Assembly (NCBI GenBank): GCA_963712115.1
Contig: CAVQGX010000026.1
Location: 1-64,000, forward strand
DNA from: an uncultured delta proteobacterium
Lineage (GTDB): Bacteria > Desulfobacterota > Syntrophobacteria > BM002
Direction: 5' to 3'
Length of the DNA stretch: 64,000 nucleotides
Under the pieces are notes generated by a model. The model worked only from the letters and a program-made list of their open reading frames with translations. It searched no databases and was not told the origin of the DNA. The position numbers and the translations under genes were made by a program. Position 1 is the stretch's first letter, and every line of letters begins with the position of its first letter. This document shows, one piece after another, positions 2,291 to 42,353 of this stretch.

Positions 2291-3050
2291 ATGGAAGAGA
2301 CATACGAGCCGAAAATCCTGGCCTTTTTGTGTAACTGGTGTGCTTATGCGGGGGCTGATCTGGCGGGGGTTTCACGCTTTCAATACCCTCCCACCATTCG
2401 CGTCATCCGAACCATGTGTTCCGGCCGGGTTGACCCCCTTTATGTATTGGAGGCATTCAAGAACGGCTACGACGGGGTCTTTGTCTTCGGCTGACATCTA
2501 GGAGAATGTCATTACCTGGACGGTAATGTATACACCTCCAAGCGGATACCGGTGGTGGAGCAATTGTTGGATTTTAGCGGTATTGGCAGCAGCAGAATTC
2601 AGCTTCGCTGGGTAAGCGCTGCCGAGGGACAACTCTTCGCCAACTACGTTACCGAATTGAGTGACCTAATTGCGAAAACTCGGACCCTTCCAACCTGCTG
2701 ATTTCGCCATGGAACTGGCAGCGGCGGAAAGCGTTCTGAATTCGACGCGCATACGCTGGCTCATGGGAATGGATAGGCAGATCACCGAGCAGGAAAACGT
2801 CTACCACGAGAAAATGGAAGCGACAGCGTACCAGGCATTTCTCCGGCAAGCTGTGGCTGATGAATATGAAAAGGGGTTGATCCTTGAAGCCCTCGCAGAT
2901 GGGCCGCAGTCTGTGCGCGAAATGGCCAGCAAGACCGGATTGCCGGTCTACACCGTCTCCTTGAGGTTGAACGATTTGGAAAGAGCGGGTCAGGCACAAT
3001 TTCACAAATTCGAGGGGACAACGGCCAAGTTCGTGCGCCCGGCTGCGTGA
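2291..3050 (+). CDS. mvhD: MvhD/FlpD-type [2Fe-2S] protein with selenocysteine and a C-terminal winged-HTH extension (one indel near 2670)
   Basis: [19 protein letters not shown], then G-TGA(2492-2494)-HLGECHY continuing in frame to WVSAAEG; continuation ORF 2670-3050 ends in an HTH-like segment. Confidence 0.85.
2510..2528 (+). promoter_or_regulatory. Putative SECIS hairpin of mvhD copy 1
   Basis: CATTACC-TGGAC-GGTAATG 7-bp stem beginning 16 nt after the in-frame UGA. Confidence 0.65.
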
Positions 3051-3086
3051 TGAAGCGGTCAATGGCAAACTCTATGAGGAATAGCT

Positions 3087-6000
3087 ATGGCAAAGTCAAA
3101 AGACAGTAAGAAAGTAGGTGCCGTAATGGTGGTCGGAGGAGGAGTCGCCGGGATGCAGGCCTCTCTAGACCTGGCCAATGCAGGTTATTATGTCCATTTG
3201 GTGGACAAATCACCAACCATTGGTGGCATCATGGCACAACTGGACAAGACCTTTCCGACAAACGACTGTGCCATGTGTATTATCTCACCCAAGCTGGTTG
3301 AGGTCGGCCGGCATCTCAATATAAATATGATCACCAACACGGAAGTGGAAGGTCTCGAAGGTGAGGCCGGTAACTTCACGGCTAAGCTGATCAATCACCC
3401 TCGCTACATTGATTTGGAGAAGTGCACCGCTTGCGGTGAGTGTAGTCGGGTGTGCCCAGCAACCGCTGTCAATGAATTCAATGAACGCCTCGATCTTAGA
3501 GAAGCCACTTACATGAGGTATCCACAAGCCATGCCTCGAGGCTTTGTCATAGACCGCAACATCTGCGTCGGCTGCGGCCTTTGTCAAAAGGTCTGTTTGG
3601 CTGAAGCCATCAATTACGGCGACGAGCCCCGCCGGACCGAGATTAGAGTGGGCACCGTAATATTGGCGCCGGGTAACGGGGTCTTTGATCCGTCCAGGTT
3701 TGAGACCTACAACTACATGGACCTACCTAATGTGGTTACCAGTCTGGAATTTGAGCGCATATTGAGTGCCTCCGGGCCATACCAGGGTCACCTTATGCGA
3801 CCTTACGACCGGGAAGAGCCGCAAAAGATCGCCTGGCTGCAATGTGTGGGCTCACGGGATATCAACCACTGTGATAACTCCTACTGCTCGGCAGTCTGCT
3901 GCATGTACGCCATCAAGGAAGCGGTCATCGCCAAAGAGCACGCCCACGGTGATCTGGATACAGCCATCTTTTTTATGGACATGCGAACCTACGGCAAGGA
4001 TTTCGAACTTTACTACAACCGCGCTCAGGAAGAGGGTGTGCGCTTTATTCGTTCGCGAGTCCACAGTATTGAACCCGAGGGCGAATGCGATCTGCTGCTC
4101 TCCTATGTGGACGGTCAGGGTGAGTTTCAGAGTGAAGTCTTCGACATGGTGGTCTTGTCCGTGGGTTTCGAGGTGGGAGAGGAAGTCATTGAACTCTCTA
4201 AACGTCTCGGTATTGAACTCAACCAGCACAATTTTGCCTTAACCGCCCCATCGACTCCCGTGACCACTTCGCGACCGGGTGTCTATGTCTGTGGAACACT
4301 ACAGGGACCCAAAGATATTCCCCAATCCGTAATGGAAGCCTCGGGCGCTGCCGCAGCTTCCAGTGCCTTACTCAGTGAGGTTCGTTGGACCGAGACCAAA
4401 ATCAAGGAATTGCCAGAGCAGAGGGACGTTAGTGAAGAAGAGCCCCGGGTCGGCGTGTTTGTTTGCAACTGCGGTATCAATATTGGCGGCATTGTGGACG
4501 TACCCGCTGTTCGAGAATATGCTCGGAGCTTGCCCAATGTTGTTCATGTGGAAGACAACCTGTTCACCTGTTCTCAGGATACCCAGGTTAATATGGCCGA
4601 GGTCATAAAAGAAAAATCCATAAACCGCATGGTAGTTGCTGCTTGCACCCCCCATACTCACGAAGATCTGTTTCGAGAAACCCTGCTTGAGGTCGGCCTC
4701 AACAAGTATCTCTTTGAAATGGCCAACATCCGCAATCAGGATTCTTGGGTGCATATGAACGATCCGGAAAAGGCCACGGCAAAGGCCAAAGATCTCGTAC
4801 GCATGTCTGTGGCCCGGGCAGCTCTCCTGGAGCCGCTTGAAGAGAGAATGATAGAGATCAAACAGCGGGGGTTGGTGATCGGCGGCGGGGTGGCAGGCCT
4901 CAATGCGGCCTTGAATCTGGCCCAACAGGGCTTTGAGACTGTCCTCGTTGAGAAGGAAAAGGAGTTAGGGGGGTTGGCACGTCATCTCCACCACACCATA
5001 GACGGTTTAGATGTGCAAAAATATATGGACAACCTCATCGAGGAAGTACAGAACAATGAGAAGATCCAGGTGCTAACCGAGGCACTTGTTGTCGGATTTA
5101 GCGGGGCCAAAGGAAATTTCACCACTGAAGTATTGGTTGGCCCCGGTATGTATGAAAGGAAAATAGAGCACGGTGCGACCATAATTGCCACAGGCGCGGT
5201 GGAGCACAAGCCTAAAGAATATCTCTACTCAGAAGATGAGCGGGTCATGACCCAGCTTGACTTAGGTAAATTCCTCCATGAGAACGGCAAAAAGGCGGCC
5301 AATTGGCAGAGAGTAGTGATGATCCAGTGTGTGGGCTCACGGAATGAGGATAATCCCAACTGCAGCCGTGTCTGTTGTCAGGGAGCGGTGAAACATGCGC
5401 TGGAACTCAAAGAGTTGAACCCGGAGATGGAGATCATCATCCTCTACCGGGATATGAGGATGTATGGTCTGCTGGAAGACTACTACAAAGAGGCAAGAAG
5501 CAAGGGTATCCTGTTTTTTCGCTACAGCCCTGACCAACCACCTCAGGCGAGCACTAACGGTGACGGCCTGCAGATTACCTTTGTGGAGCAGCTGCTGAAC
5601 CGGCCTGTCCAGATGAGTGCGGATGCTGTGGTTCTGGGTTCTGCCACTATGGCGGCGGACACTGAAGAGCTGGCATCCCTTCTCAAGCTCCCGCGCAATA
5701 GGGACGGTTTCTTTATCGAAGCCCATGCCAAACTGAGACCGGTGGATTTTTCCTCAGAGGCGATCTACCTTTGCGGTACTGCCCATGCGCCGAAACTCAT
5801 GAGTGAGAGCATCGCCCAGGCACTGGCCGCCGCTTCCAAGGCGGGTTCATTTCTGGCAGCAGAGGAGCTACGGGTGGGCGGTGCCGTTGCCGTAGTAGAT
5901 CCAGAGCGTTGTGCCGCCTGTCTGGTCTGTGTCATGAGCTGTCCTTACGGGGTTCCCCGAATCAATGAAGAAAACGTCTCGGAGATCAACCCGGCCCTTT

Positions 6001-6116
6001 GTCAGGGTTGCGGGGTTTGTGTCTCCGAATGTCCGGCTAACACGATCCACTTGGGTCATTGCGAGGATGACCAGATTAGTGCCAACTTACATGCCCTTTT
6101 GGAAGGAGTGATGTAA
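3087..6116 (+). CDS. hdrA: Large HdrA-like protein (1009 aa; two FAD-binding motifs, several 4Fe-4S motifs)
   Basis: GGGVAG twice, LDKTFPTNDCAMC, CTACGECSRVCP, QCVGSR, C-terminal 2x ferredoxin; RBS GAGGA upstream. Confidence 0.93.
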   Translation: MAKSKDSKKVGAVMVVGGGVAGMQASLDLANAGYYVHLVDKSPTIGGIMAQLDKTFPTNDCAMCIISPKLVEVGRHLNINMITNTEVEGLEGEAGNFTAKLINHPRYIDLEKCTACGECSRVCPATAVNEFNERLDLREATYMRYPQAMPRGFVIDRNICVGCGLCQKVCLAEAINYGDEPRRTEIRVGTVILAPGNGVFDPSRFETYNYMDLPNVVTSLEFERILSASGPYQGHLMRPYDREEPQKIAWLQCVGSRDINHCDNSYCSAVCCMYAIKEAVIAKEHAHGDLDTAIFFMDMRTYGKDFELYYNRAQEEGVRFIRSRVHSIEPEGECDLLLSYVDGQGEFQSEVFDMVVLSVGFEVGEEVIELSKRLGIELNQHNFALTAPSTPVTTSRPGVYVCGTLQGPKDIPQSVMEASGAAAASSALLSEVRWTETKIKELPEQRDVSEEEPRVGVFVCNCGINIGGIVDVPAVREYARSLPNVVHVEDNLFTCSQDTQVNMAEVIKEKSINRMVVAACTPHTHEDLFRETLLEVGLNKYLFEMANIRNQDSWVHMNDPEKATAKAKDLVRMSVARAALLEPLEERMIEIKQRGLVIGGGVAGLNAALNLAQQGFETVLVEKEKELGGLARHLHHTIDGLDVQKYMDNLIEEVQNNEKIQVLTEALVVGFSGAKGNFTTEVLVGPGMYERKIEHGATIIATGAVEHKPKEYLYSEDERVMTQLDLGKFLHENGKKAANWQRVVMIQCVGSRNEDNPNCSRVCCQGAVKHALELKELNPEMEIIILYRDMRMYGLLEDYYKEARSKGILFFRYSPDQPPQASTNGDGLQITFVEQLLNRPVQMSADAVVLGSATMAADTEELASLLKLPRNRDGFFIEAHAKLRPVDFSSEAIYLCGTAHAPKLMSESIAQALAAASKAGSFLAAEELRVGGAVAVVDPERCAACLVCVMSCPYGVPRINEENVSEINPALCQGCGVCVSECPANTIHLGHCEDDQISANLHALLEGVM

Positions 6117-6571
6117 TGGACCAGTTTGAACCGGTAATCGTCGCCTTTTGCTGCAACTACTGAGCCTACTCTGCGGCGGACCTGGCAGGTTCGATGCGGC
6201 TCAGGTATCCCACCAACATCAAGATTATCAAAGTCCCCTGTAGCGGCAGGGTGGCCATCATCCATCTGCTGAAGGCCCTGGAGGAGGGCGCTGATGGCGT
6301 CATTGTCGCCGGCTGTCTGGAGGGGGACTGCCATTATCAGTCGGGCAACCTGCGGGCAAAAAAGCGAGTGATCTATGTTCAGGAGGTCTTGGAAAAGATT
6401 GGTATGGAACCGGACAGGGTGGCCATGTACAACCTATCCGCTGGGGAGGGTCCAAGGTTTGCCGAAATCGCCCGGGAGATGACCGAAAAGGTTAAAGAAC
6501 TGGGGCCCAGCCCTATCAAAAACGCGAAAAAGTTGGCTTCTAAGAAATCGAAAGTGGAGGTGGCCGCATGA
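6116..6571 (+). CDS. mvhD: MvhD [2Fe-2S] subunit with selenocysteine at codon 16
   Basis: ATG 6116 overlaps hdrA stop (TAATG); MDQFEPVIVAFCCNY-TGA(6161-6163)-AYSAADLAG continues in frame into ORF 6194-6571 (VPCSGRV, GCLEGDCHY). Confidence 0.92.
6177..6193 (+). promoter_or_regulatory. Putative SECIS hairpin of mvhD copy 2
   Basis: CGGACC-TGGCA-GGTTCG stem-loop 14 nt after the UGA; TGAGCC 6161-6166 can also pair with GGCTCA 6198-6203. Confidence 0.6.
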
Positions 6572-7236
6572 TTATGGCAAGACCCAAACCCATAGAAGAA
6601 ATAATTGACGAGATTAAAGACTTCAAAAAAGTTTTGATAGCAGGCTGTGACGGCTGTGTCACTGTCTGTGAAGCCGGGGGTGTCAAGGAGGTGCAGGTAT
6701 TGGCTTCTGCCTTGCGACTCTACTTCACCAAAGAGACCAAGCGCATTGAGATCGACGAAACCAGTCTGACCCGTCAGTGCGATAAAGACTACCTGCGGGA
6801 GCTCCTGGACAGGATTAATGATTACGATGCGGTGGTTTCCCTGGCCTGTGGCGCCGGAGTGCAGTTCATGGCAGAGATGTATCGAAATAAGCCCATATTT
6901 CCAGGGGTGGATACCTGCTTTATTGGGGTTACTGAAGAGCGGGGCGTTTGGGCGGAGCGCTGCCAGGCCTGCGGCCAGTGTATCTTGGCCAGCACCGGAG
7001 GGATTTGTCCGATTTCCCGATGCTCGAAGCGTATGTTGAACGGACCCTGCGGGGGTTCCGAAAAGGGCAAATGCGAGGTAAGTCCCGACACGGATTGCGG
7101 CTGGCAGCTCATCTATGAGCGGCTAAAAGAACTCGGACAACTGGACTTCTTCGCCAAGCCCACTGATCCTAAAGATTGGATCAGCAGCAGGGATGGTGGA
7201 CCTCGCAAGATCGTCAGGGAGGATGTGCGGTCATGA
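6568..7236 (+). CDS. metV: Methylene-THF reductase small subunit MetV (MTHFR C-terminal domain protein)
   Basis: GCDGCVTVC, RQCD, ERCQACGQC, GICPISRCSKRMLNGPCGG; directly upstream of metF. Confidence 0.9.
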   Translation: MIMARPKPIEEIIDEIKDFKKVLIAGCDGCVTVCEAGGVKEVQVLASALRLYFTKETKRIEIDETSLTRQCDKDYLRELLDRINDYDAVVSLACGAGVQFMAEMYRNKPIFPGVDTCFIGVTEERGVWAERCQACGQCILASTGGICPISRCSKRMLNGPCGGSEKGKCEVSPDTDCGWQLIYERLKELGQLDFFAKPTDPKDWISSRDGGPRKIVREDVRS

Positions 7237-8171
7237 ACACGACAACACCGAGCAAATTGCAAAAAATCTTGGCTGAAGGACACTTTGCCGTCACCTCAGA
7301 ATGTGGTCCGCCCCGTGGAGCCAACGGTGAGGTGGTGGCGGAGAAGGCAAATCTTATCAAGGACCACGTGGATGCGATAAACGTCACCGACAACCAGACT
7401 TCGGTGGTGCGCTTGTGTAGTCTGGCCTCTTGCATCCGCATCAAGCAAATGGGGTTGGAGCCAGTTTTGCAGATGGTTACTCGGGACCGAAACCGTATCG
7501 GTATCCAGAGTGATATTCTCGGAGCCGCCTCTTTCGGTATTAACAATATTCTCTGTCTCACTGGGGACCATCAACACTTTGGCGATCACCCCCAGGCTAT
7601 TAATGTCTTTGACCTGGACTCCACCCAACTCATTCAGACGGTGAAGCTGATGCGGGATGAGGGTAAATTACTCGGCGGCTTTGAAATGAAAGAGCGCCCG
7701 AAAATGTTCATCGGTGCCGCTGCCAACCCTTTTGCCGACCCTTTTGAAATTAGGGTAGCCCGTCTGGCCAAAAAGGTGGCGGCCGGCTGCCAGTTCATTC
7801 AGACCCAGTGCATCTACAACATGGACAAATTTAAGCTCTGGATGAAGCAGGTTCGCGACCAGGGATTGCACGAGAAGGTGGCCATCCTTGCAGGGTTGAC
7901 GCCGATGAAGAATGTGGGTATGGCCAAATATATGAAGAACCGGGTACCAGGGATTGACGTTCCGGACGAGATTGTTGCGCGTTTGGCCGGGGTGCCCAAA
8001 GAAAAACAAGCGGACGAGGGAATCAAAATCTGCGTTGAGCAGATCGAGGAATTGAAAGAAGAGGAAGGAATCAGGGGTTTTCACATCATGGCCATCGAGT
8101 GGGAGGAGAAGGTCCCGGGGATTGTTGAAATGGCGGGCCTTTACCCGAGACCTAAGGTAAACGAAAACTAG
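7233..8171 (+). CDS. metF: Methylenetetrahydrofolate reductase
   Basis: VTSECGPP, INVTDNQ, RDRNRIGIQSD, LCLTGDH, FIQTQ; ATG 7233 overlaps metV stop (ATGA). Confidence 0.93.
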   Translation: MNTTTPSKLQKILAEGHFAVTSECGPPRGANGEVVAEKANLIKDHVDAINVTDNQTSVVRLCSLASCIRIKQMGLEPVLQMVTRDRNRIGIQSDILGAASFGINNILCLTGDHQHFGDHPQAINVFDLDSTQLIQTVKLMRDEGKLLGGFEMKERPKMFIGAAANPFADPFEIRVARLAKKVAAGCQFIQTQCIYNMDKFKLWMKQVRDQGLHEKVAILAGLTPMKNVGMAKYMKNRVPGIDVPDEIVARLAGVPKEKQADEGIKICVEQIEELKEEEGIRGFHIMAIEWEEKVPGIVEMAGLYPRPKVNEN

Positions 8172-8223
8172 ATAACTCTAAAAAAAGGCAAAAAACGTTT
8201 TATTTTAATTAGGAGGTTTTCTC

Positions 8224-8607
8224 ATGCCAAAAAAATATGTTTTGATCGTTGACGACGATCCGGATTTGGTAGAAACTGTCTGCATGATGCTGGAGGACAA
8301 GGGGTACGAGGTGGGGAAAGCCTATGATGGCGTTGAGGGCAAAGAGGCCATCAAGCAACGCCGTCCCGACCTACTGGTCCTCGACGTAATGATGCCACGA
8401 AAAGACGGATACAAACTCTGTGCTGAACTCAAGGCCGACAAAGCGACTAGGGACATCCCGATTATCCTGCTCACTGCAGTGGGTGAAGCCGTCCCCACAA
8501 CCAGTTATACCCATGCCCAGGGGATGTCAACCGAGGCGGAAGAATACATTCCCAAGCCGGTGGACAGCAAGACCTTGGTAGAGGCAGTAGATAGCTTCTT
8601 TGGCTAG
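8224..8607 (+). CDS. Single-domain response regulator
   Basis: LIVDDD, LDVMMP, LLTA, IPKP receiver motifs; RBS AGGAGG. Confidence 0.9.
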   Translation: MPKKYVLIVDDDPDLVETVCMMLEDKGYEVGKAYDGVEGKEAIKQRRPDLLVLDVMMPRKDGYKLCAELKADKATRDIPIILLTAVGEAVPTTSYTHAQGMSTEAEEYIPKPVDSKTLVEAVDSFFG

Positions 8608-8653
8608 TGCCAGCTTTAGATGCGGGGGGTCGCCTGTCGCCGGGTAACTGGCA

Positions 8654-9667
8654 ATGACTAAAATCAAGCTTAGAGGCCTCAAGCTCCTGGAAGGAGGAGC
8701 GCAGGTGGTCTCTTCAAGCCCTGGTGACCACAACCTCCTGGCGACAGGTGTGTGCTCCCCTTTGGCACTAAACAAGATCAATCTCACTTTCCTTACCCAT
8801 GCCGTCCTTGATCAGAGTGCGAGGTCCATCACAGCCTTCTGCACGGAAGGTTCCGCTGGCCTCGCCTCTGCTTCACTTGTGGAAGCCCACCAAGGCAGGA
8901 CCTCAACAGTGGATTTTCATGGAGAAGTGAGCACCCTCTCCGTCTTTCCCCATGATCAAAGACCACGAGTGACAGGTTTGCTGCTGGATGCTCTAGCGAA
9001 GAAAGAGATAACTCTGCAGGGCCTGGCCAGCTCCCCTTCGGCAGTGTCGTCCATTGTTTCTACCGTCGAGACAGAGGCTGCCATCGACACCTTGTTTGAA
9101 GCCTTTGAGTTCCCGGCCTATCGCTCCCCCTCAGATTGGTATGGTGCCTACGAGGGGAAGGAACATCTCCTGCAAAAAATCATTGCTTCATACCAAGAAA
9201 AAGTCGTCAGGATCTACGATATCGTTCAGCAATCGGAGCTAGATCTATGGAGCCTAGTTGTGGACCAGATAGGTCTGGCTAAACTGGGTGAGGCCTTGAT
9301 GGCTCTCGGGCAGTGGGAGATTAGGATGCCCTTTGTAATAGCGCTGTTATCCCCGGAGAACAGGCTTGTCTTCAACTTCTGCTTTCCCGGGGAGCAGGAC
9401 CCCCGGATAAGGGAAACTTTCTCCTCTCATCTAGGCAGCACCGAGCTCACCCGTCATTCCCAGGTAGCGGCACTGTATATTCACGGACCACATTTCGGCG
9501 ACCGCTATGGCATCGCCCTTACCCTGGTAAAAGCATTGGAAAGCAGTGGGGTATCACTCCTGGCCATGGGTTGCACTGTATCGTCTGTTTCTGTGATCAT
9601 CAGAGAAGAAGACCTTACTGCCGCCGTGCAGGCGCTCGAGGCCACCTTTAAGAGATCCAGTGCATAG
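8654..9667 (+). CDS. ACT-domain-containing protein (aspartokinase-regulatory-like repeats)
   Basis: 337 aa ORF with repeated ACT-like units (LSVFPHD...LASSPSAVS; LYIHGPHFGDRYG...CTVSSVSVII). Confidence 0.6.
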   Translation: MTKIKLRGLKLLEGGAQVVSSSPGDHNLLATGVCSPLALNKINLTFLTHAVLDQSARSITAFCTEGSAGLASASLVEAHQGRTSTVDFHGEVSTLSVFPHDQRPRVTGLLLDALAKKEITLQGLASSPSAVSSIVSTVETEAAIDTLFEAFEFPAYRSPSDWYGAYEGKEHLLQKIIASYQEKVVRIYDIVQQSELDLWSLVVDQIGLAKLGEALMALGQWEIRMPFVIALLSPENRLVFNFCFPGEQDPRIRETFSSHLGSTELTRHSQVAALYIHGPHFGDRYGIALTLVKALESSGVSLLAMGCTVSSVSVIIREEDLTAAVQALEATFKRSSA

Positions 9668-9672
9668 CGTCT

Positions 9673-9770
9673 GGTAAGCGGTAAGCCGTAAGTGGTTTTT
9701 ACTGAGCCATGTAGGGTGTCCATTCACCGCTGGTTCCGTAACGCTTACCGCTCACTGTTTACTGCTTACT
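9673..9770. repeat. Heptamer-built intergenic palindrome (GTAAGYG / YGCTTAC)
   Basis: gtaagcg gtaagcc gtaagtg ... cgcttac cgctcac tgtttac tgcttac. Confidence 0.75.
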
Positions 9771-9780
9771 CCAAGAAATG

Positions 9781-9810
9781 AAAAGCCCCTAGCCAATAAT
9801 GACTAGGGGC
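9781..9810 (-). terminator. Intrinsic terminator
   Basis: GCCCCTAG/CTAGGGGC stem followed by a U-rich tract on the minus strand, downstream of the CCG-domain gene. Confidence 0.7.
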
Positions 9811-9838
9811 GTAGAAGGGATCGGAACTTACTGCGAGC

Positions 9839-11068
9839 TCACTCTTCTTTTTTATCGTCCACCCCATCGATCACCAGCGAGTCGGCCACCAGTTCCCAGA
9901 GGTATTTCACCTCCACATCCATGAAGTCGTACTCTTGGCGAAGACTCTTCATGATCTGGTCACGGCAGTTGTGGCAAGGCGCTATGAGTAGCTTTGCTTC
10001 TGTATCCTTTATTTGTTTGGCCTTTACCCGGCCATAGTGAATGCGCTCCTTGGCATACGGCATGGCCCAGGCGCCTCCACCACCACCACAACAATAGTTG
10101 TTGGCCCGGTTGGGATGCATCTCGACATAATTATCCACACACTGCTGGGTAATCCAGCGCGGCTCCTCGTAGTAGCCGTGACCAAAGGTCTTCTCACTCT
10201 TCCTGGCGTAATTGCAGGGGTCGTGATAGGTGGTCAGCTCTGGGTGTTTGGATTTGTCTATTTTGATGCGGCCCGTTTCAATGTATTCCTTCAGTAGGTC
10301 ATGAACGCTCATGAACTTAACGTCCTCATCGGCGAACCACTGTTGCAGACCAAGCCTGGTCGCATAGTAGGCGTGGCCTCACTCCGGCAAGAGGAGATAC
10401 TCACATTCAAGTTTTTTGTAATTCTCCACAATCCTCCGAACAATCTCCTTCATGGAGTCATCATCGCCGGTGAAAAGACCCCAGTTCACCCCCTCCCAGT
10501 TTTCCGAGGTGGTGGTCCAGGATTCTTTGGCCGCGTAAAATATTTTCCACCAGAAGAACATATCTTCGGGCTCGGCAAAGGGCTCCTTGGAATTGATGGT
10601 CACCATGATTCTGGCACCCTTCTTGTCCACCGGAACCTCAAAGCCCGGTAACTCCTCTGCCAGTTCGGCGCCCAGGTCCTCCAGGAGGAAAAGGTAGTCC
10701 TCTTTGGGAATTCCCATATTGTTGCCTGTTTTCAGGCACATCTCCACTCCCTTGTGCATTACCCCGGGAACCTTGTCCCGAGCCCGCAGGGTCCGGGCCG
10801 AGCGCATCATTTTGTTGAGATCGATATTCATGGGACATGCTTGCTCGCAGCGGCCACAGATCGTGCAGATCCAGGGGAAGCGCGAATCAATGAGCTCCTG
10901 ATCCAAGCCAAGCAGGGCCATGCGCACCGCCTTGCGCATGTCCAACCCGTCTACTCCGGTGACAGGACAACCTCCAGCGCAGGTACCACAGGTGAGGCAT
11001 AAGTCGGGATATTCTCCCGCCAGTCGCCGTTTTTCCCTTTTGTCAAGAACGATAGTTTCGCCTTGCAT
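9839..11068 (-). CDS. HdrD/DsrK-like Fe-S oxidoreductase (2x4Fe-4S + CCG domains) containing selenocysteine, 409 aa
   Basis: ORFs 10379-11068 and 9839-10312 are in the same frame, separated only by TGA 10381-10379 in LLPE-U-GHAYY (family motif ECGH); CLTCGTCAGGCP, TYHDPCN, YCCGGGGG, PCHNC. Confidence 0.9.
10343..10364 (-). promoter_or_regulatory. Putative SECIS hairpin of the CCG-domain gene
   Basis: mRNA UGC-GACCA-GGCU-UGGUC-U-GCA: stem with bulged U and G-rich loop about 15 nt after UGA. Confidence 0.7.
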
Positions 11069-11171
11069 GAGCTTCCTCCTAACAAGATTTTCTTTTTCCC
11101 TCCTGCTGCAAGGTTACGCAGTTTGAGGGTGGGCGCAGTTCAAGGGGCAGATTTTGTCTTCCCTTGTAATC

Positions 11172-11187
11172 AGCAAACCTTGTGCCT
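11172..11187 (-). promoter_or_regulatory. Sigma54 (-24/-12) promoter
   Basis: Minus strand AGGCAC-AAGGT-TTGCT about 105 nt upstream of the CCG gene, followed upstream by an AT-rich (IHF-like) tract. Confidence 0.7.
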
Positions 11188-11406
11188 AATAGGCTAAAAA
11201 TAAAAAAATACATTAATATCAATAATATAAGCTAATGAATGGGGCGACACCAGCAGGTGGTCAGCGGGGGGAATGCCCCACCCTATGGTAAGATGGACAC
11301 TTAATATATTAATATTACTAGATTATTTTATAACTGGGTAAAAATGCCTCAAACGTTACCAATTTACCCGCAAGGATTGCAAGGCGGTTGGTGCTTTTTT
11401 CAGCAG

Positions 11407-11437
11407 AAAAAAACCCCGCTCTGACGAGCGGGGTTTT
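11407..11437. terminator. Intrinsic terminator downstream of cooS
   Basis: A7-CCCCGCTC-TGAC-GAGCGGGG-T4. Confidence 0.85.
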
Positions 11438-11477
11438 GCTTTCTAAGTTTTTGTTTGTAGATGCCGATGATTAGGCA

Positions 11478-13466
11478 CTATTCTATATCACCCGCTTCAA
11501 CCTCCAGGGCCATGCGATCCGCCATATCCATGAGCACGCGCTCGCGCTCACCCATAATGCCCAGAGCCTCACGCTTTTTGTCGATGTGGTCGATCATCAG
11601 ATGGGCCATCTCGTAGGGATCTTTGGCAAAACCCCACTTGCCCAGACCCTGCTTCTCCAAACCGTCAAAGAGCAACTTGTGGAACTTGGTCTCGGCTATG
11701 GTGGGAAAGGTCACACCAAAGACGGTATACACCCCCGAGGCCACAACATACTGACCAATGCTGATGGCCTTTTCGCTCATCCACTCAGGCGCAGCCCCGG
11801 CCACCGGCAGATCTGCTATGGTTTCACCCAAACCACCGGTCTTCACCATTTCAGCACAGGCAATGAGGATCCGGCTATTGTCCACGCAGGAGCCCAGACC
11901 CAGTACAGGCGGCATACCAACGGTCTCACAAACCTCCTGCAAACCATCACCTGCCAGCACCGAAGCATCAGGCTTCATCAACCCGGCCTTGGCCAGTGAT
12001 ATCTGGGAGCAACCCGTCTGTACCACCAGAACATCATTTTTGATCAGCTCTTTCACCAACTCAACATGCACATAGTCATGCCGCACCCTGGGATTGGTGC
12101 AACCAACCACACCGGCAACTCCCCTGATCCGGCCGTTGATGATGTTGTCATTCAAGGGCACATAAGAAGCCCTGAAGGTGCCACCAAGCATGTAGTTGAT
12201 GTACTCGTGGCTGAAGCCGTGTATCCCCATAGACTTGTTCTGAGGGATGACTATCTTGGCCTTGCGATTCTTAAACCGCTTGATCCCCTCCTTCACCACC
12301 TTGTCCGTGCATGGGCGGGGCTTGTGGTCATTAAACTCAATGTGCTCAGCTCCCTCAATGTGCGCCCGGGGATTGGTAGTGAAAAACCTGGTGCCGTAAC
12401 AGTCGGCTAATGACTGGAGAGACTGTTTGATGCACTGGACATCCACCGCCATGGCATCCACCGCACCGGTGATCAAAATGGTCTCGGTGCTCATGAAATT
12501 TCCCGCATGGGGAATCCCGTGACGGCTCAATACCTCAGCACCAGAACAACACATACCCAAAAGATTTATACCCTCGGCTCCGGCTGCCTTGGCCTCTTCC
12601 AACAGCTTGGGATCATTTACCGAGGCAATCATGGACTCGAACATGTTGGGCTCATGGCCGTGGACAATGATATTTACCTGCTTCTCATCCAAACAGCCCA
12701 TGTCAACCCCAGCCAGTACCGGAGAGGGCGTGCCGAAAAGAATGTCAGAGATCTCTGTGGCCACCATGGATCCACCCCAACCATCGGCAAGGGCGGTGCG
12801 GGAGCACTGCTTAACCACGTTCTCGTAGTCCTGATCCACTCCCATATGCGTCCGGTGCATAATCTCCATGATCTCACGCATAGCTCCCCGGGGAACTATG
12901 CCCAATTCGCGCCATTTGGCCAGGGTCTTGGGTGGTACCCGCGAAACAAAGGGAATCTCTCCCTCAACCTGGGTGTAGGTGCGCTCCAACTCATGATAAA
13001 GATCAGTGGCTACCTCTTTAATCTCTCGACCCGCAGTCTCAATGCCGACTGACTCCGCCACGTCCACAAGCTTCTGCTCGTCTTTGATCTGGTAGTCCTT
13101 AATCTCGCCTCTCACCACTCCCCGAAACACATCCAGCATGCTCATGCCGTGGTCCGTATGGGCTGCGGCGCCACTGGCCACCATCCGAGCAAAGTTGCGC
13201 GAGGCGATGGTGTCGATGGTTGCACCGCAAACGCCCGTTTTGCCATAGGGATCCTTGGACGATAGCCGGCAGGGACCCATGGAGCAGTGCTTACAACAGG
13301 CAGAGTCCGCCCCAATGGGACAGGCCTTCATGTCTGCCGCCCGGTGAAAGGCAGTCTCTACACCGTCTTCCGCTGCCTTACGCAACATCTGCTGGGTGGA
13401 TTTGCAGGTAGTTACCTCCGCAATGGACAATTCCTTCTTCTTTTTCTCTTTGACTTCCTCTGCCAT
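11478..13466 (-). CDS. cooS: Anaerobic Ni-Fe carbon monoxide dehydrogenase catalytic subunit
   Basis: CCKHCSMGPC, VCGA, HTDH, HGHEP, GMCCSG, DVQC, VVGCTNP, GSCVDNSR, EWMSEKA. Confidence 0.96.
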   Translation of the reverse strand: MAEEVKEKKKKELSIAEVTTCKSTQQMLRKAAEDGVETAFHRAADMKACPIGADSACCKHCSMGPCRLSSKDPYGKTGVCGATIDTIASRNFARMVASGAAAHTDHGMSMLDVFRGVVRGEIKDYQIKDEQKLVDVAESVGIETAGREIKEVATDLYHELERTYTQVEGEIPFVSRVPPKTLAKWRELGIVPRGAMREIMEIMHRTHMGVDQDYENVVKQCSRTALADGWGGSMVATEISDILFGTPSPVLAGVDMGCLDEKQVNIIVHGHEPNMFESMIASVNDPKLLEEAKAAGAEGINLLGMCCSGAEVLSRHGIPHAGNFMSTETILITGAVDAMAVDVQCIKQSLQSLADCYGTRFFTTNPRAHIEGAEHIEFNDHKPRPCTDKVVKEGIKRFKNRKAKIVIPQNKSMGIHGFSHEYINYMLGGTFRASYVPLNDNIINGRIRGVAGVVGCTNPRVRHDYVHVELVKELIKNDVLVVQTGCSQISLAKAGLMKPDASVLAGDGLQEVCETVGMPPVLGLGSCVDNSRILIACAEMVKTGGLGETIADLPVAGAAPEWMSEKAISIGQYVVASGVYTVFGVTFPTIAETKFHKLLFDGLEKQGLGKWGFAKDPYEMAHLMIDHIDKKREALGIMGERERVLMDMADRMALEVEAGDIE

Positions 13467-13552
13467 AACACACCTCCAAATTAAGGTCCTTTACGATTTA
13501 TGAAGATCCTTTTGAATGCCATAAGTGCACTTAGACCGCGGGCAGTTTCAGT

Positions 13553-39582: not shown

Positions 39583-39611
39583 AATGCCAGAGGCGCAATG
39601 CGCCTCTGGCA

Positions 39612-39824
39612 TAAATCCGAAATCCCAATTTCTAAATCCCAAACAAATTCGAATTACCAAAATACAAAATTAAAAACGGGAAAAATCAATGGCCAGATTC
39701 TCAGCATAGTCGTTTGCCTGCAGAATTAGGGTTGCGCGACCTTTTGAGCATTGAATATTTGAAACTGGGGCCCCACCCAAAGGGTGGGGAGTCCGGAGGA
39801 CAATTTGGAATTTGTTTCGGATTT
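39612..39824. repeat. AAATCCS/TTGGAAT heptamer palindrome with inserted 45-bp module
   Basis: aaatccg aaatccc aatttct aaatccc aaacaaa ... tttggaatttgtttcggattt. Confidence 0.75.
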
Positions 39825-39853
39825 AGCTGAATAGAGAATGGCCCTGGGAAACA

Positions 39854-39882
39854 TTGACAATTGGGGCATGGGACGATAAACT
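39854..39882 (+). promoter_or_regulatory. Sigma70 promoter of the candidate ncRNA
   Basis: TTGACA-17 nt-TAAACT, 7 nt before the first paired base. Confidence 0.8.
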
Positions 39883-39889
39883 AAAAAAT

Positions 39890-40221
39890 GAGCTTGCCAG
39901 GGGCAGGCACAGAAACTGCGTCCACGGAGCGCCGCGCCACCTAATAAGAAGACGGCTAGGCACGCAGGGACGTGCCCCTGAAGGAGTTGCTCCTTCCGGA
40001 ATTCTTCTGGAAGGAGAGCGACCCCGGCACCACGAGAGTCCCTGCCCTCTCGGGTGTCCGTACTGTGGCAGGGTAGTGCTCAGAATCCACTCGCAGACCT
40101 GAGCGCGAGAGTAATGCGGGTTAGGCCCGACCAGAAAAATGTAACCAGGCCATCTGGCGGGCGACGAACTGTCTGGTATTTTGGACGGCAATCAGTTTCT
40201 GTGCCTGTCCCTGTTGGGCTC
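39890..40221 (+). ncRNA. Unidentified large structured RNA (~330 nt) with paired ends and tandem pseudoknots
   Basis: 21-bp helix 39898-39918/40193-40213, further helices and three H-type pseudoknots; own promoter and terminator; no credible ORF. Confidence 0.8.
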
Positions 40222-40226
40222 GAGAG

Positions 40227-40298
40227 AAAAACCACCCGCTGAGGGGTGGTTTTTTTAATCCTCCTCTAGCTAAGGCAAAAATAGCTAGGGGTTTTTTT
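40227..40298. terminator. Two tandem intrinsic terminators
   Basis: A5-CCACCC-GCTGAG-GGGTGG-T7 (bidirectional) and CCTCTAGCTA...TAGCTAGGGG-T7. Confidence 0.85.
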
Positions 40299-40329
40299 GT
40301 TGACCTATCTCCCACTCTTAAAGATAGGA

Positions 40330-40647
40330 TCAGGACTTCTCTTCTTTTTTGATTTTTCCTAGCTCCGACTTAAGTTGTTCAACTTCTTCCTTGTACTTTT
40401 CTGCCTCTTCTTTGTACTTGGGGGCTTCATCGGTGTCCAGAGTTGATGAAAACTCATCCTCTTTCTTGCTGAAATAAGGAAGCTTGTCTTTCACCTCGTC
40501 AAAGCCAAGGTAAGCAGCAATAACACCACCAAACAACAGCATTACAGGCAGTCCCCCTGCGACCAGCAGCAGGAATGCATCCCACCAAACAAGCAAGAGT
40601 ATGACCCCCAGTACAGCTGCAACAATCCCACCGACAAACACCGCCAT
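40330..40647 (-). CDS. Small membrane protein (2 TM + coiled-coil tail)
   Basis: 105 aa, hydrophobic hairpin, charged tail, RBS AGGAGG. Confidence 0.8.
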   Translation of the reverse strand: MAVFVGGIVAAVLGVILLLVWWDAFLLLVAGGLPVMLLFGGVIAAYLGFDEVKDKLPYFSKKEDEFSSTLDTDEAPKYKEEAEKYKEEVEQLKSELGKIKKEEKS

Positions 40648-41036
40648 GCCATTTCCTCCTTCTTGTAGATACCACGAAATTTAGCGGCTACCGAAAAAGA
40701 GCGTGAAAGGCCGCCCATTCCATACTGATGGCACGAAAACTCCTCCCGTATACCATGAGCATCAGGGGATTGCAAGACAATTTTACCCTCTTTAACAAGG
40801 CGCTATTGATATGGTCGCAAATAGCTTGTCCAATAATGTACTTTCGCTTTTATGAGGTCTAATCGGTACACGGTAAAAGTCCACTTTTTTCCGAAAACCC
40901 CTTTACAAGAAGAGCTTTTCTCTATACAATCAGCCCATCTCTAGGTCTGGTCCGGTTTAGCTGTGGATCAGGTATTTGTTGGAATCAGGGATTGTCTAAA
41001 TTAAGTGTTTAAACTCAAGCAACAAGGGTGGTGCTT

Positions 41037-42353
41037 ATGGCTAAACCATCAAAAAAAGGTGCAAAATCGGAAGCCGAAGTTGCGGCAGAGGCAAACAGGA
41101 AAAAAGAGATCCTTGATAAGGTGGCTCAGTCCAACCTGCCCACCAAGACGATTTTGAAGGAGTTGGGCATTTCCAGGTCCACCTATTACAGCTGGCTCAA
41201 GCGCTACGAAGAGGAAGGGGAGGAGGGACTGCTGGACAGTCGCTCACAGGCGCAACCAAGCGAGGAAAAAGTAGAAGCAGCCCCTGCGGTTGAAGAGGCC
41301 GAATCCCAACCTCCGGTGCAGGCGGAACCGGTGGCCGAAGAAGTGAGGGAGGAAAAGGTCGAACCTCCAACAGTGGAGGAACCCAAGGTGAAGCCTCCAG
41401 AGCCGGTTTCCCCGCCATTGGCGAAGGAGCCCAAGGCAGTGGAAAAAGTAAGCAGACCATCTCCAACTCCCCCACTTAGTGGGGGTGAAGCTAAAAAGGG
41501 CCTTGGCGGCTATGCCTTCGTCGCTGTATTGCTCTTGGCAATCGGTCTGTTAGTGAGCATTAGTCTCAGCAATTACAACACCTATAAGCTGGTTAAGAAC
41601 AACAACACCGTCACACTATGGAAGGGTAAGTTTGCTCCCCGTGGTTTTGAAGTGGTGGAGTCCTTCGAGCCGGTAGTGGTTGGGGACAGTGACGTAAGTG
41701 GGTTGACCAACAAGCTCTACACTGGCAAGGCTGCTGTTTATAAAGCCATCTTTGGTTTTTATATGGACCAAGTAACCGGAGAGACTTCCAAAGGTGACAA
41801 GGCAGACATGAGCATGATCAGCCTACTCCTCGACAGGGCAGAGAATTTTATGGATGGCAACGGCAAAGAGGAAGATAGTCTGGCGACAATGCGTTTCAAC
41901 TTGGCCCAACAACGGGTTGCCATGGCAGAATTAGGGTTGCAAAAGGCTTATCAAAAGGCACTGCCGATTTACCAGGAAGCGCTTAAGGCCGGCTTGGCAG
42001 ATAGCGCCATGCTGGAAGCCAAAGTAGAAACCATGCAAAAAACATTGGGACTTGCTCCGGTTCTACCACCAGACGAAGAAGCTGAGACTGCTCCGGCGGA
42101 GGAAACAATCATCAAGGAACCTGCGGCTACTGCCACCCCGGAAGAAAAACCAGCCGAAGTAGTTGTGGCTCCTCAAGAGGAAGGCAAACAAGGGGAAACT
42201 GGAGTCAAGGTAGAGCCAGCTGCCGAAGCCGGCGAGGATGTCAAAGAGGAAACGGGAACAAAAGTTACCACGGAGCCGGCCAAAGATGAGGAGACCAACG
42301 AGAAGCCCAGCGGTTTTAAGGAGTGGCTGAAATCGAAACGATCCCAGTTGTAG
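41037..42353 (+). CDS. HTH-domain bitopic membrane protein, hypothetical
   Basis: ILKELGISRSTYYSWLKRY HTH, Pro/Glu linker, TM YAFVAVLLLAIGLLVSI, acidic tail; promoter TTTACA-17-TACAAT at 40902-40930. Confidence 0.8.
   Translation: MAKPSKKGAKSEAEVAAEANRKKEILDKVAQSNLPTKTILKELGISRSTYYSWLKRYEEEGEEGLLDSRSQAQPSEEKVEAAPAVEEAESQPPVQAEPVAEEVREEKVEPPTVEEPKVKPPEPVSPPLAKEPKAVEKVSRPSPTPPLSGGEAKKGLGGYAFVAVLLLAIGLLVSISLSNYNTYKLVKNNNTVTLWKGKFAPRGFEVVESFEPVVVGDSDVSGLTNKLYTGKAAVYKAIFGFYMDQVTGETSKGDKADMSMISLLLDRAENFMDGNGKEEDSLATMRFNLAQQRVAMAELGLQKAYQKALPIYQEALKAGLADSAMLEAKVETMQKTLGLAPVLPPDEEAETAPAEETIIKEPAATATPEEKPAEVVVAPQEEGKQGETGVKVEPAAEAGEDVKEETGTKVTTEPAKDEETNEKPSGFKEWLKSKRSQL

Follow-up and report, generated by a model that had tools for sequence, protein, structure and literature searches.

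A large, abundant RNA with three pseudoknots encoded next to polA in one uncultured family of Syntrophobacteria

Introduction

The spacer downstream of polA in an uncultured Syntrophobacteria genome (assembly GCA_963712115.1, contig CAVQGX010000026.1) raises the question of whether it encodes a structured RNA, and if so, whether this RNA belongs to a known family. The analyzed window was the whole stretch of 64,000 nt of this contig. The original prediction, made from the sequence alone, proposed a promoter, a long closing helix, hairpins, three tandem pseudoknots and a terminator in this spacer, and interpreted them either as an undescribed class of large structured RNAs or as a tmRNA-derived RNA. 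To answer this question we analyzed the fold of the RNA and its covariation, its relation to known RNA families, its distribution, and its presence in metatranscriptomes.

Results

Structure and conservation of the RNA

To test whether the locus has the features of a separate gene, it was first scanned for promoter and terminator motifs. The scan detected a sigma-70-type promoter and, at the other end, a terminator-like hairpin followed by T7, and the segments proposed to form the closing helix all pair (Table 1). The −35 sequence TTGACA is present in 17 of the 18 sequences that have letters there in an alignment of 20 sequences (A1), and a TAATAA-like −10 sequence is located at the same spacing in most relatives. 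The primary transcript given in Table 1 is inferred from the positions of the promoter and the terminator, and was not observed as one molecule. The minimum free energy of the region 39885-40260 is −182.3 kcal/mol (z = −7.1), and 0 of 100 shuffled sequences folded as well.

Table 1. Positions and support of the features of the RNA locus. Percentages are the cells paired in alignment A3 (35 distinct sequences); "changed" means changed on both sides of the pair.
Feature	Positions	Strand	Composition	Support
Sigma-70-type promoter	39854-39882	+	TTGACA-17-TAAACT	10 of 12 matches in the scan
Inferred primary transcript	39889-40256	+	about 368 nt, from about 7 nt after the −10 to the end of the T-run	
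Closing helix P1, 5′ strand	39890-39924	+	P1a 39890-39895 (6 bp including 2 U-G), P1b 39898-39918 (21 bp with one G-U), P1c 39919-39924 (6 bp)	P1a+P1b: 27 pairs, 14 changed, 94.3%; P1c: 99.4%
Closing helix P1, 3′ strand	40182-40221	+	P1c 40182-40187, 5-nt bulge 40188-40192, P1b 40193-40213, P1a 40216-40221	as for the 5′ strand
Abundant species	39907-40184	+	about 277 nt; 5′ ends at 39907, 39909 and 39912/13, 3′ ends at 40183/84	metatranscriptome contigs
Candidate P2	39931-39956	+	GCCG 39931-39934 with CGGC 39953-39956, inside a highly conserved single-stranded region	100%, none changed; neither supported nor refuted
Hairpin P3	39960-39975	+	5-bp stem GCACG/CGUGC	99.4%, 2 of 5 changed
Arm P4	39983-40024	+	lower helix 39983-39990 with 40018-40024, internal loop, upper hairpin 39994-40000 with 40006-40012	lower helix 86.5%, 4 of 7 changed; upper hairpin 82.4%, 4 of 7 changed
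Pseudoknot 1	40025-40073	+	stem 40025-27/58-60, 40028-31/53-56, 40034-38/47-51; loop CCCUGCC 40040-40046 with GGCAGGG 40067-40073	stem 90.7%, 6 of 12 changed; loop helix 98.0%, central pair shows GU, UG, CG, AU, UA and GC
Pseudoknot 2	40076-40121	+	stem 40076-40083 with 40099-40106; loop ACUCGCA 40089-40095 with UGCGGGU 40115-40121	stem 99.3%, 4 of 8 changed; loop helix 100%, one pair C-G to U-A in 2 sequences
Pseudoknot 3	40125-40177	+	stem 40125-40134 with 40154-40162, A40130 bulged; loop ACCAGGC 40144-40150 with GUCUGGU 40171-40177	stem 99.7%; loop helix 99.2%, 3 of 7 changed, including A-U to G-C in 7 sequences
Two-way terminator hairpin	40227-40256		A-run, CCACCC/GGGUGG stem (hairpin 40236-40249), T-run in this genome	scan
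Convergent small ORF	40330-40647	−		

To determine whether the fold is conserved, the pairing was examined in A1 and in a larger alignment (A3), which also included metagenome copies. For A3, two of the 39 distinct candidate rows were dropped because of masked N stretches (L044, L118) and three because they were cut by contig ends (L109, L101, L128), while one sequence cut 3 nt short (L042) was kept and one (L031) was added by hand. In A1, 93.4% of cells were paired and 34 pairs were changed on both sides, which was not reached by any of 500 shuffles. In A3, the fold comprised 105 pairs with 95.1% of cells paired and 41 pairs changed on both sides, while slid controls gave 33-44% of cells paired and 10-17 such pairs. 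The covariation is weak in places, because several helices, including the loop helix of pseudoknot 2 and the stem of pseudoknot 3, are nearly invariant, and because related sequences are not independent the cell counts overstate the number of events. Nevertheless, all three loop-to-downstream pairings exist and are kept in relatives, and the data support a fold made of a long closing helix, two or three hairpin arms and three consecutive H-type pseudoknots. Many columns alternate between G-U and A-U or G-C pairs, for example GU 18/AU 17, UG 14/CG 16, and UG 25/UA 7/CG 3, which would be A·C mismatches on the opposite strand, and this indicates that the RNA is read from the + strand.

Two details of the original prediction were corrected by these data. 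The stem of pseudoknot 1, proposed as one pairing of 40025-40038 with 40047-40060, is not a continuous 14-bp helix, but consists of three short helices (3 + 4 + 5 bp) separated by small internal loops. Of the proposed 11-bp hairpin at 39990-40016, only the inner 7 bp or so recur outside the close relatives of the window (67% of cells paired as drawn), while the lower helix of P4, which had not been listed and was predicted by RNAalifold, encloses it and covaries. The alignment of this arm is poor in the most divergent clade. RNAalifold also predicted a competing pairing of 40116-40119 with 39932-39935, which was rejected because it is broken in exactly the two sequences where the loop helix of pseudoknot 2 shows a compensatory change. 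A naive scan for covarying column pairs returned 932 pairs, mostly confounded by the two-clade phylogeny, and was discarded. When runs of four or more consecutive pairs were scanned instead, the accepted helices ranked at the top, and there was no convincing alternative partner for the 5′ tail (39907-39924) or for the conserved GCCGCGCC segment. The 18-mer of the 5′ tail has no other match with three or fewer mismatches in the genome, apart from its own P1 partner and three chance sites.

Comparison with known RNA families

To find out if the RNA belongs to a known family, the window was compared with Rfam 15. No family matched at gathering thresholds over the window, and up to E = 10 over 39600-40500 there were only chance matches centered on the terminator (Phe_leader, RNAI and others), all far below their thresholds. 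No self-splicing or self-cleaving RNA (group I and II introns, hammerhead, twister, HDV-like and others) was among these matches, which does not exclude an undescribed ribozyme. The genome has its own tmRNA (207 bits, on another contig), RNase P RNA (326 bits), 6S RNA (81 bits) and SRP RNA (60 bits) elsewhere. A search of those four loci with the nhmmer family profile found nothing, and blastn-short found only 10-15-nt chance matches (E of 0.19 or higher). The RNA is non-coding, because no reading frame is kept in all 35 sequences of A3; the longest stop-free stretch is 23-112 aa, differing by frame and sequence, with some frames partly open in this GC-rich sequence, and variable columns fall 78/78/83 over the three codon positions.

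The possibility that the RNA is a tmRNA paralog or derivative, which lost its tRNA-like domain and tag frame but still works with the ribosome or SmpB, was considered because the order of a long helix, hairpin(s), three consecutive H-type pseudoknots, and the return to the helix corresponds to the tmRNA layout given in the original prediction (H2, H5 and PK2-PK4). The size and abundance of the RNA are also in the range of tmRNA. However, beyond the layout this idea has no backing. ARAGORN, which also finds permuted tmRNA genes, detected no tRNA or tmRNA in the window, no tmRNA family was among the covariance-model matches up to E = 10, and the genome's own tmRNA locus gave nothing with nhmmer and only 10-14-nt blastn-short matches at E = 2.9. 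There is no acceptor stem, T-arm or CCA end, and the ends form a plain helix of about 33 bp. A frame ending in UAAUAA in the window (39928-39948) is not kept in relatives. Additionally, the helix that would correspond to H2 is largely removed from the abundant species, and no intermediate forms were seen at the locus. Hence, a tmRNA origin appears very unlikely.

Distribution and genomic context

To analyze the distribution of the RNA, genomes were searched with a model of the family. The RNA was found in 20 of 21 genomes of one uncultured family of Syntrophobacteria (here f1), while one genome of the same genus, which is 83% complete (G012), has no copy. In the other families of the class, 1 of 100 genomes had a weak match of 22.6 bits, located in the spacer after a fumarase gene, which shares only short GC-rich strings, was found in 1 of 39 genomes of its genus, and is treated as chance. 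In a sample of the phylum, 0 of 149 genomes outside f1 matched. A pattern scan of 185,579 species genomes returned 20 loci, of which 19 were confirmed by the model and are MAGs labeled Syntrophobacterales, Syntrophobacteria, Desulfobacteraceae, Desulfobacterota or Deltaproteobacteria, while the twentieth, labeled Hydrogenophaga, was not confirmed. Of 51 metagenome pattern loci, 27 were confirmed by the model and 24 were not.

The locus has the arrangement polA, RNA, convergent small membrane-protein ORF and HTH protein. The three genes flank the RNA wherever the contig reaches far enough, as tblastn hits were obtained for polA in 17, for the small ORF in 19 and for the HTH protein in 18 of 21 loci. 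In 2 of 5 sister-family genomes examined, the convergent small ORF follows polA directly, after a short spacer (about 85-100 nt, read by eye) with one hairpin, while in the other three the small ORF was not found next to polA. None of the five has the RNA there, and the gene looks like an insertion relative to the sister families.

This context bears on whether the RNA could be a mobile or defense-related element, such as a MITE, a phage or satellite remnant, a retron, or the template RNA of a defense reverse transcriptase. The closing inverted repeats, together with the back-joined contig described below, may recall retron RNAs and rolling-circle reverse transcription of such templates, in which case the joint would come from concatemeric copies. 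However, there is one copy in the genome of the window and one model match in each of the 21 genomes that hold it, at the same syntenic site wherever the flanks were recovered, while a real dispersed repeat with 44 other copies lies 220 nt upstream. No match was found in phage or plasmid records, and the only pattern match in IMG/VR (52-nt span), which was not itself tested with the model, appears to be the same record as a locus that the model did not confirm. None of the ORFs tested by Pfam between 28 and 55 kb of the window is a reverse transcriptase, integrase or phage gene, and the neighbors are hisD, aspS, hisS, polA, a radical-SAM protein, RNase E/G, obg and proB. The downstream HTH protein has only transposase-like HTH domains, without a catalytic domain, and is syntenic in the family. 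These data make a mobile or defense-related origin very improbable.

Expression and ends of the RNA

To determine if the RNA is expressed, metatranscriptome data were examined. Thirteen runs on record as RNA contained 0.32-0.48 of the sampled words, and contigs of four of them (X1, X2, X3 and X5) were compared with the locus. The depth inside 39910-40188 was 166 in X2, up to 27,463 in X1 and up to 13,468 in X5, while the bins from 39600 to 39878 showed 0-51. X3 gave a depth of only 3-4 over part of the RNA, from which nothing is concluded. Because these are assembled contigs, which give one depth figure each, sum related strains and cannot show the strand, they do not allow a rigorous ranking of expression. 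Still, in these contigs the RNA is orders of magnitude deeper than the neighboring genes.

The same contigs defined the ends of the abundant species. The X2 contig covers 39907-40183 with adapter-like letters before 39907, and depth in this run falls from 139-166 to 0.43 after 40188. In X1, adapter-like letters are present before 39912 and after 40183. Hence, the abundant species is about 277 nt long and lacks most of the closing helix, and the transcript of about 330-365 nt in the original prediction is at most its precursor. Contigs in X1 and X5 bridge 40116-40473 and 40080-40497 at mean depths of 209-274, so some RNA runs past 40184. Fragments of about 20 nt, such as a released 3′ strand of P1, would not be captured by these libraries, and the mature particle could therefore keep that strand as a second piece.

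The position of the ends inside P1 suggests that the closing helix of roughly 33 bp is a processing stem, used in a way similar to the stems flanking bacterial 16S and 23S rRNAs. The 5′ end is located at the center of the 21-bp duplex, where a double-strand-specific RNase III-type enzyme would be expected to cut, while the 3′ end could be made by a cut at or near the 5-nt bulge or by trimming. The involvement of such an enzyme is inferred from geometry only. The observed 3′ end is 20-22 nt short of where a staggered RNase III cut opposite 39907-39909 would fall, so at least one further, unidentified step is needed. The inner part of P1b covaries (A-U to G-C in 9 sequences, U-A to C-G in 7), which is explained by a processing stem, but also by a helix that persists in the working RNA. 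Reading A1 by eye, the A-run before the terminator stem is present in 20 of 20 sequences, while a T-run of five or more after the stem is present in only 4 of 20. The conserved polarity therefore serves the convergent small ORF, which suggests that the hairpin is mainly the terminator of that gene and that processing, not termination, sets the 3′ end of the RNA.

The RNA could alternatively be a cis-acting element, such as a polA 3′ UTR, a long terminator or insulator region, or an antisense regulator of the small ORF, because it lies between two convergent genes, shares its terminator hairpin with the small ORF, and is bridged to the small ORF region by some contigs. However, it has its own conserved promoter, two hairpins (39583-39610 and 39770-39790) follow polA before this promoter, and the depth over the spacer between polA and the promoter is low. 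Two of the sister-family genomes manage with a short spacer and one hairpin at this site, a fold of this size with three pseudoknots far exceeds what a terminator needs, and the abundant species does not overlap the small ORF. A role only in cis is thus very unlikely.

A possible circular form

One observation raised the possibility that the working form is a covalently closed circle of 276 nt, which would be a variant of the processing model rather than its opposite. A 198-nt contig of X5 (depth 793.5), the only one covering 39910-40002 in this run, runs over 40106-40184 and then continues at 39909-40027, with 79 and 119 letters on the two sides. The joined positions coincide within 1-3 nt with the adapter-flanked ends seen in two other studies, and a tandem DNA duplication with those borders is therefore unlikely. 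Ligation could be performed, for example, by the archease-RtcB ligase of the family, as RtcB is present in 17 of 21 f1 genomes and in the genome of the window, with an archease gene upstream in one genome (G002), and the very high depth fits a nuclease-resistant molecule. On the other hand, the joint was seen in only one of four runs, and only in contigs. Adapter directly abutting 39907, 39912 and 40183 shows that linear molecules with fixed ends are abundant, while random breakage of circles would not give fixed ends. A reverse transcriptase that runs off the 5′ end of one copy and switches to the 3′ end of another copy could produce the same joint, and the 2-nt overlap (AC) at the joint fits that. 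RtcB is also present in 55 of 61 relatives, and hence is not specific to the family carrying the RNA. The two ends are about 13 nt apart along the helix, not juxtaposed as in archaeal bulge-helix-bulge sites. The circular form thus remains possible but tentative, and a library artifact could explain the joint.

Discussion

The data presented here confirm the arrangement proposed in the original prediction, with the two corrections described above, and of its two interpretations they support an undescribed class of large structured RNAs rather than a tmRNA derivative. With moderate confidence, the locus is best explained as a stand-alone gene for a large structured non-coding RNA of a class not yet described, confined to one uncultured family of Syntrophobacteria, and probably transcribed as a precursor from which the abundant species is excised. 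No partner protein, target or catalytic activity has been demonstrated. Our best guess is that the compact pseudoknotted core acts in trans as a stable, stoichiometric RNA, which could be the core of a ribonucleoprotein, a protein-sequestering scaffold, or a catalytic RNA, rather than as a cis-regulator or a short base-pairing sRNA.

It is useful to compare this RNA with several known systems. Like the pseudoknot ring of tmRNA, it has a long irregular helix closing a ring of hairpin(s) and three H-type pseudoknots, is about 300 nt in size and abundant, and appears to be matured from a longer precursor, but the closing helix is mostly removed rather than kept, and the RNA is confined to a single family, in which a normal tmRNA is also present. 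Similarly to the precursors of 16S and 23S rRNAs, its flanks form a long, covarying duplex around a highly structured and very abundant RNA, the 5′ end falls in the middle of a duplex of about 21 bp, and further trimming would be needed, although the enclosed RNA shows no likeness to any rRNA model and its 3′ end is not the staggered partner of the 5′ cut. Like the lineage-restricted ornate RNAs OLE, raiA, ROOL, GOLLD and the actinobacterial Ms1, it is a stand-alone gene with extensive covarying structure including pseudoknots, high expression, a narrow taxonomic range and no obvious function at discovery. However, no Rfam model of these classes matches it, it is smaller than OLE, ROOL and GOLLD, no partner gene is encoded alongside it, and it appears to be excised from a stem. 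As in archaeal circular RNAs made by bulge-helix-bulge cleavage and RtcB ligation, flanking sequences pair into a stem from which the RNA appears to be cut, its ends appear joined in one data set, and an archease-RtcB pair is encoded in the genome, but this is a bacterium, and a single 5-nt bulge on one strand does not provide bulge-helix-bulge geometry.

Large bacterial RNAs with elaborate, covariation-supported folds are rare, and most of those known turned out to be ribozymes, cores of ribonucleoproteins, or unusual assemblies. No description of the RNA reported here was found in three full-text literature searches. A more far-reaching and less likely reading is that the RNA, expressed at a housekeeping level, is ligated by the selenocysteine-containing RtcB and archease of the family into a triple-pseudoknotted circle, which would be a new class of genome-encoded circular structured RNA in bacteria, serving as the core of an unknown ribonucleoprotein or ribozyme, and abundant enough to be a major non-ribosomal RNA in anoxic sediments and soils. 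The only paper found that mentions both selenocysteine and RtcB concerns an engineered Sec98 variant of Pyrococcus RtcB. If the circular form is real, it would be a first example of stem-directed RNA circularization as the normal route to an abundant bacterial RNA. Although the RNA occurs in one uncultured family and its expression is supported at the level of contigs only, if confirmed it would offer a new RNA class whose structure, maturation enzymes and partners are open to direct tests, and would explain a conspicuous unassigned component of sediment and soil metatranscriptomes.

Sequence features and predicted folding of the locus

To verify the promoter, terminator and closing helix described in the original prediction, the region 39854-40256 was read directly and scanned with consensus patterns. 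The region reads as the original prediction described, and the scan found both the promoter and a G+C-rich hairpin followed by seven T (see the table below). The closing helix consists of three segments, of which the middle one is a perfect 21-bp duplex with one G-U, while the innermost one is separated from this duplex by a 5-nt bulge. The + strand of 39885-40260 folds to -182.3 kcal/mol, which is 7.1 standard deviations below dinucleotide shuffles. Because the complementary strand folds about as well, the energy alone does not identify the strand. In the spacer that precedes the promoter, two separate hairpins were found between the polA stop codon and the promoter, and an A-rich dispersed repeat of about 55 nt lies just after the polA terminator hairpin. 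This repeat has 44 other copies in the genome, at 77-91% identity and on both strands, and it also appears in metatranscriptome contigs with unrelated flanks; it is not part of the RNA gene.

Coordinates of the features of the RNA locus, its neighbors, and related loci outside the window
Feature	Position	Strand	Remark
Hairpins between the polA stop codon and the RNA promoter	39583-39610 and 39770-39790		Two separate hairpins
Dispersed repeat	39611-39668		A-rich, about 55 nt
Promoter	39854-39882		TTGACA-17-TAAACT
Closing helix, outer segment	39890-95 with 40216-21
Closing helix, middle segment	39898-918 with 40193-213		Perfect 21-bp duplex with one G-U
Closing helix, inner segment	39919-24 with 40182-87
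Bulge in the closing helix	40188-92		5 nt
Abundant RNA species	39907-09 to 40183-84		About 277 nt
Possible helix P2	39931-34 with 39953-56		4 bp
Lower helix below the "11-bp hairpin"	39983-90 with 40018-24		Covarying
Hairpin followed by seven T	40236-40256		G+C-rich
Convergent small ORF	40330-40647	-	Membrane protein
HTH protein gene	41028-42353	+	441 aa
RtcB gene, genome that contains the window (G000)	G000:C33:33369-34676	-	Outside the window
RtcB, locus L140	L140:1498-2952	-
RtcB, locus L139	L139:1501-2811	-
Weak match to the RNA model (genome G087)	L081:1244-1391		22.6 bits

Comparison with described RNA families

To find out whether the RNA belongs to a described family, the 64-kb window was searched with cmscan against all 4227 Rfam 15 families, which gave nothing at gathering thresholds. 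With permissive filters up to E = 10 over 39600-40500, only sub-threshold matches centered on the terminator hairpin were obtained, and ARAGORN found no tRNA or tmRNA in the window. The same genome carries tmRNA (207 bits), RNase P RNA (326 bits), 6S RNA (81 bits) and SRP RNA (60 bits) on other contigs, and so this locus does not stand in for any of these four housekeeping RNAs. A profile of the new family also found nothing in those four loci.

Distribution and genomic context

To determine how widely the element is distributed, related genomes and larger sequence collections were compared. The element is single-copy in its own genome, which argues against a mobile repeat. Searches with blastn over 61 related genomes found it in 20 of 21 genomes of the family to which the window belongs (f1), and in 0 of 39 genomes of five other families. 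A covariance model of the pseudoknot half of the RNA (161 positions) likewise matched 20 of 21 f1 genomes, with scores of 139-192 bits across f1 genomes and confirmed contigs, while it matched 1 of 100 genomes in the rest of the class, at 22.6 bits, and 0 of 149 genomes in a phylum sample outside f1. The single weak match, in genome G087 from another family of the class, lies in the spacer of about 180 nt after a fumarase C-terminal gene, and it shares with the RNA strings such as CCCCGGUC...GACCGU and UGCGG.UU.GGCCCG. It is probably a chance match, although it is the only candidate for a remote relative outside the family. A pattern built from invariant columns, which was scanned over one genome for each of 185,579 species, returned 20 loci. 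Nineteen of these are MAGs labeled Syntrophobacterales, Syntrophobacteria, Desulfobacteraceae, Desulfobacterota or Deltaproteobacteria, while the twentieth, labeled Hydrogenophaga, was not confirmed by the model. A looser pattern returned 51 loci in JGI metagenomes, of which 27 were confirmed. Nothing was confirmed in the phage, plasmid or IMG/VR collections, although the one IMG/VR pattern match was not tested with the model.

Where the contig reaches far enough, the gene order is polA, the RNA, a convergent small membrane-protein ORF, and an HTH protein; polA was hit in 17, the small ORF in 19 and the HTH protein in 18 of the 21 loci collected. The wider neighborhood is of a housekeeping character, with hisD, aspS, hisS, polA, a radical-SAM protein, RNase E/G, obg and proB. 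The small ORF encodes a protein with an N-terminal hydrophobic segment and a K/E-rich tail, which has no Pfam family. Residues 31-105 of this protein are conserved across the family, and because conservation begins at residue 31, the annotated TTG or ATG start may lie too far upstream. The HTH protein has only transposase-like HTH domains at its N-terminus and no catalytic domain, and tblastn hits to it lie at the same relative position in 18 of the 21 family loci, and therefore it is probably a domesticated or regulatory HTH protein rather than a mobile element. The region downstream from polA was also examined in five sister-family genomes, none of which has the RNA there. In two of them (loci L136 and L137) the same small ORF follows polA after a short spacer (about 85-100 nt, read by eye) holding one hairpin, while in the other three the small ORF was not found next to polA. 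The small ORF therefore predates the RNA gene, and the RNA gene is probably an innovation, or an insertion, in the ancestor of one family.

Covariation support for the predicted structure

To test the predicted structure, base-pairing was counted in two alignments, with the stem of the first pseudoknot (PK1) redrawn as three short helices rather than the single stem of the original prediction. In the alignment of 20 sequences, 93.4% of cells pair and 34 of 100 pairs change on both sides. None of 500 shuffles reached any of the five measures, and slid controls gave 34-42% paired. In the alignment of 35 distinct sequences including metagenome copies, the refined structure has 105 pairs, with 95.1% of cells paired and 41 pairs changed on both sides, while slid controls gave 33-44% paired and 10-17 such pairs. 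It should be noted that the sequences fall into a few clades, and therefore cell counts overstate the number of independent events, and that several helices are almost invariant. The loop helix of each pseudoknot is supported. The PK1 loop helix is paired in 98.0% of cells, and its central pair is seen as GU, UG, CG, AU, UA and GC. The PK2 loop helix is paired in 100% of cells, with one C-G to U-A change in two sequences, and the nested alternative proposed by RNAalifold for the PK2 3′ strand is broken in exactly the two sequences that carry this compensatory change. The PK3 loop helix is paired in 99.2% of cells, with three pairs changed on both sides, one of them from A-U to G-C in seven sequences.

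The "11-bp hairpin" of the original prediction is conserved only in its inner 7 bp or so, and it sits on a covarying lower helix that the original prediction did not list. The possible helix P2 is invariant, and hence covariation does not bear on it. Many columns alternate G-U with A-U or G-C, which fits only the + strand. No reading frame is kept in all 35 sequences, and the variable columns show no codon periodicity, at 78/78/83 over the three codon positions.

Expression and maturation of the RNA

To see whether the RNA is expressed, metatranscriptome data were examined for the region 39800-40300. Thirteen runs on record as RNA contain 0.32-0.48 of the sampled 31-mers of this region. The contigs of four runs from four studies (X1, X2, X3 and X5) were then compared with the locus. 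The depth within 39910-40188 was about 166 in X2, 1,971-27,463 in X1, 794-13,468 in X5 and 3-4 in X3, while in the bins 39600-39878 it was 0-36, 0-3, 0-51 and about 2, respectively. The contigs give one depth figure per contig, sum related strains and cannot show strand. The depth at 39755-39816, which is 22-41 in X5, may reflect another short repeat or a short transcript.

The contigs also served to locate the ends of the RNA. In X2, one 301-nt contig consists of 24 adapter-like letters followed by 39907-40183, where it ends, and after 40188 the depth in this run falls to 0.43. In X1, adapter-like letters, which likely are Illumina adapter, lie directly before 39912 and directly after 40183. 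X1 and X5 also have contigs bridging 40080/40116 to about 40473-97. The data suggest that the abundant molecule is about 277 nt long, and that it keeps the inner 5′ strand of the closing helix but has lost the outer 5′ strand and almost the whole 3′ strand, although a released 3′ strand of about 20 nt would escape these libraries. The 5′ end lies at the center of the 21-bp perfect duplex, where a double-strand-specific RNase III-type enzyme could be expected to cut. On the other hand, the 3′ end is 20-22 nt short of the staggered partner site, and a second cut near the 5-nt bulge, or trimming, has to be assumed. In the alignment of 20 relatives, read by eye, the A-run before the terminator stem is present in all 20, while a T-run of 5 or more after it is present in only 4. 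The hairpin is therefore conserved mainly as the terminator of the convergent ORF, which fits an RNA whose 3′ end is set by processing. We read the closing helix as a processing stem, like those flanking rRNAs, with the enzymes inferred.

In X5, a 198-nt contig runs 40106-40184 and continues at 39909-40027, with 79 and 119 letters on the two sides and a 2-nt ambiguity at the joint. The joined positions are the same ends that abut adapter in X1 and X2, and therefore what is joined are the two ends of the RNA. This could mean that part of the RNA is a 276-nt circle, or alternatively, it could reflect a jump of reverse transcriptase from the 5′ end of one copy to the 3′ end of another, which is plausible for so abundant a template. 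Fixed linear ends certainly exist. The contigs do not distinguish between the two explanations, and the circle is regarded as a tentative possibility, less likely than not.

An RNA ligase was noticed in the family that carries the RNA. Every RtcB match that covers the start of the profile has exactly one in-frame TGA in this family, which is 18 of 18 f1 genomes with RtcB, counting G000, although in two of them (genomes G010 and G012) the gene is cut by contig ends. No match in the other five families has one. The TGA aligns with the conserved metal-binding cysteine, in a motif read GYDIN-U-GVR against GYDIN-C-GVR, which indicates a natural selenocysteine RNA ligase. An archease gene lies just upstream in genome G002. 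In the literature searched, only an engineered Sec variant of Pyrococcus RtcB was found.

Classification and possible function

The layout of the RNA resembles the tmRNA pseudoknot ring, its inferred maturation resembles rRNA processing stems, and its overall profile, which is lineage-restricted, ornate and abundant, resembles OLE, raiA or Ms1, but it is a member of none of these. The defining features of tmRNA that were tested were not found. A retron-like RNA is disfavored by the lack of a reverse transcriptase among the ORFs tested by Pfam between 28 and 55 kb of the window and by the fixed syntenic site wherever the flanks were recovered. A cis element of polA or of the small ORF is also disfavored, because the RNA has its own promoter, two hairpins lie between polA and that promoter, the depth is orders of magnitude above the neighbors, and sister families do without it. 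No description of this RNA was found in three full-text literature searches, as judged from listings and abstracts. We rate it as a new RNA class, with the reservations that it occurs in one uncultured family and that its function is unknown.

The conserved 16-nt 5′ tail has no complementary site elsewhere in the genome, and a scan for helices found no internal partner for it either. What remains is a compact, multiply pseudoknotted RNA of about 277 nt, with strongly conserved single-stranded segments and very high steady-state levels, which is a profile typical of ribonucleoprotein cores, protein-sequestering RNAs and ribozymes. Our guess is that it serves as a trans-acting, stable, protein-associated (or catalytic) core RNA.
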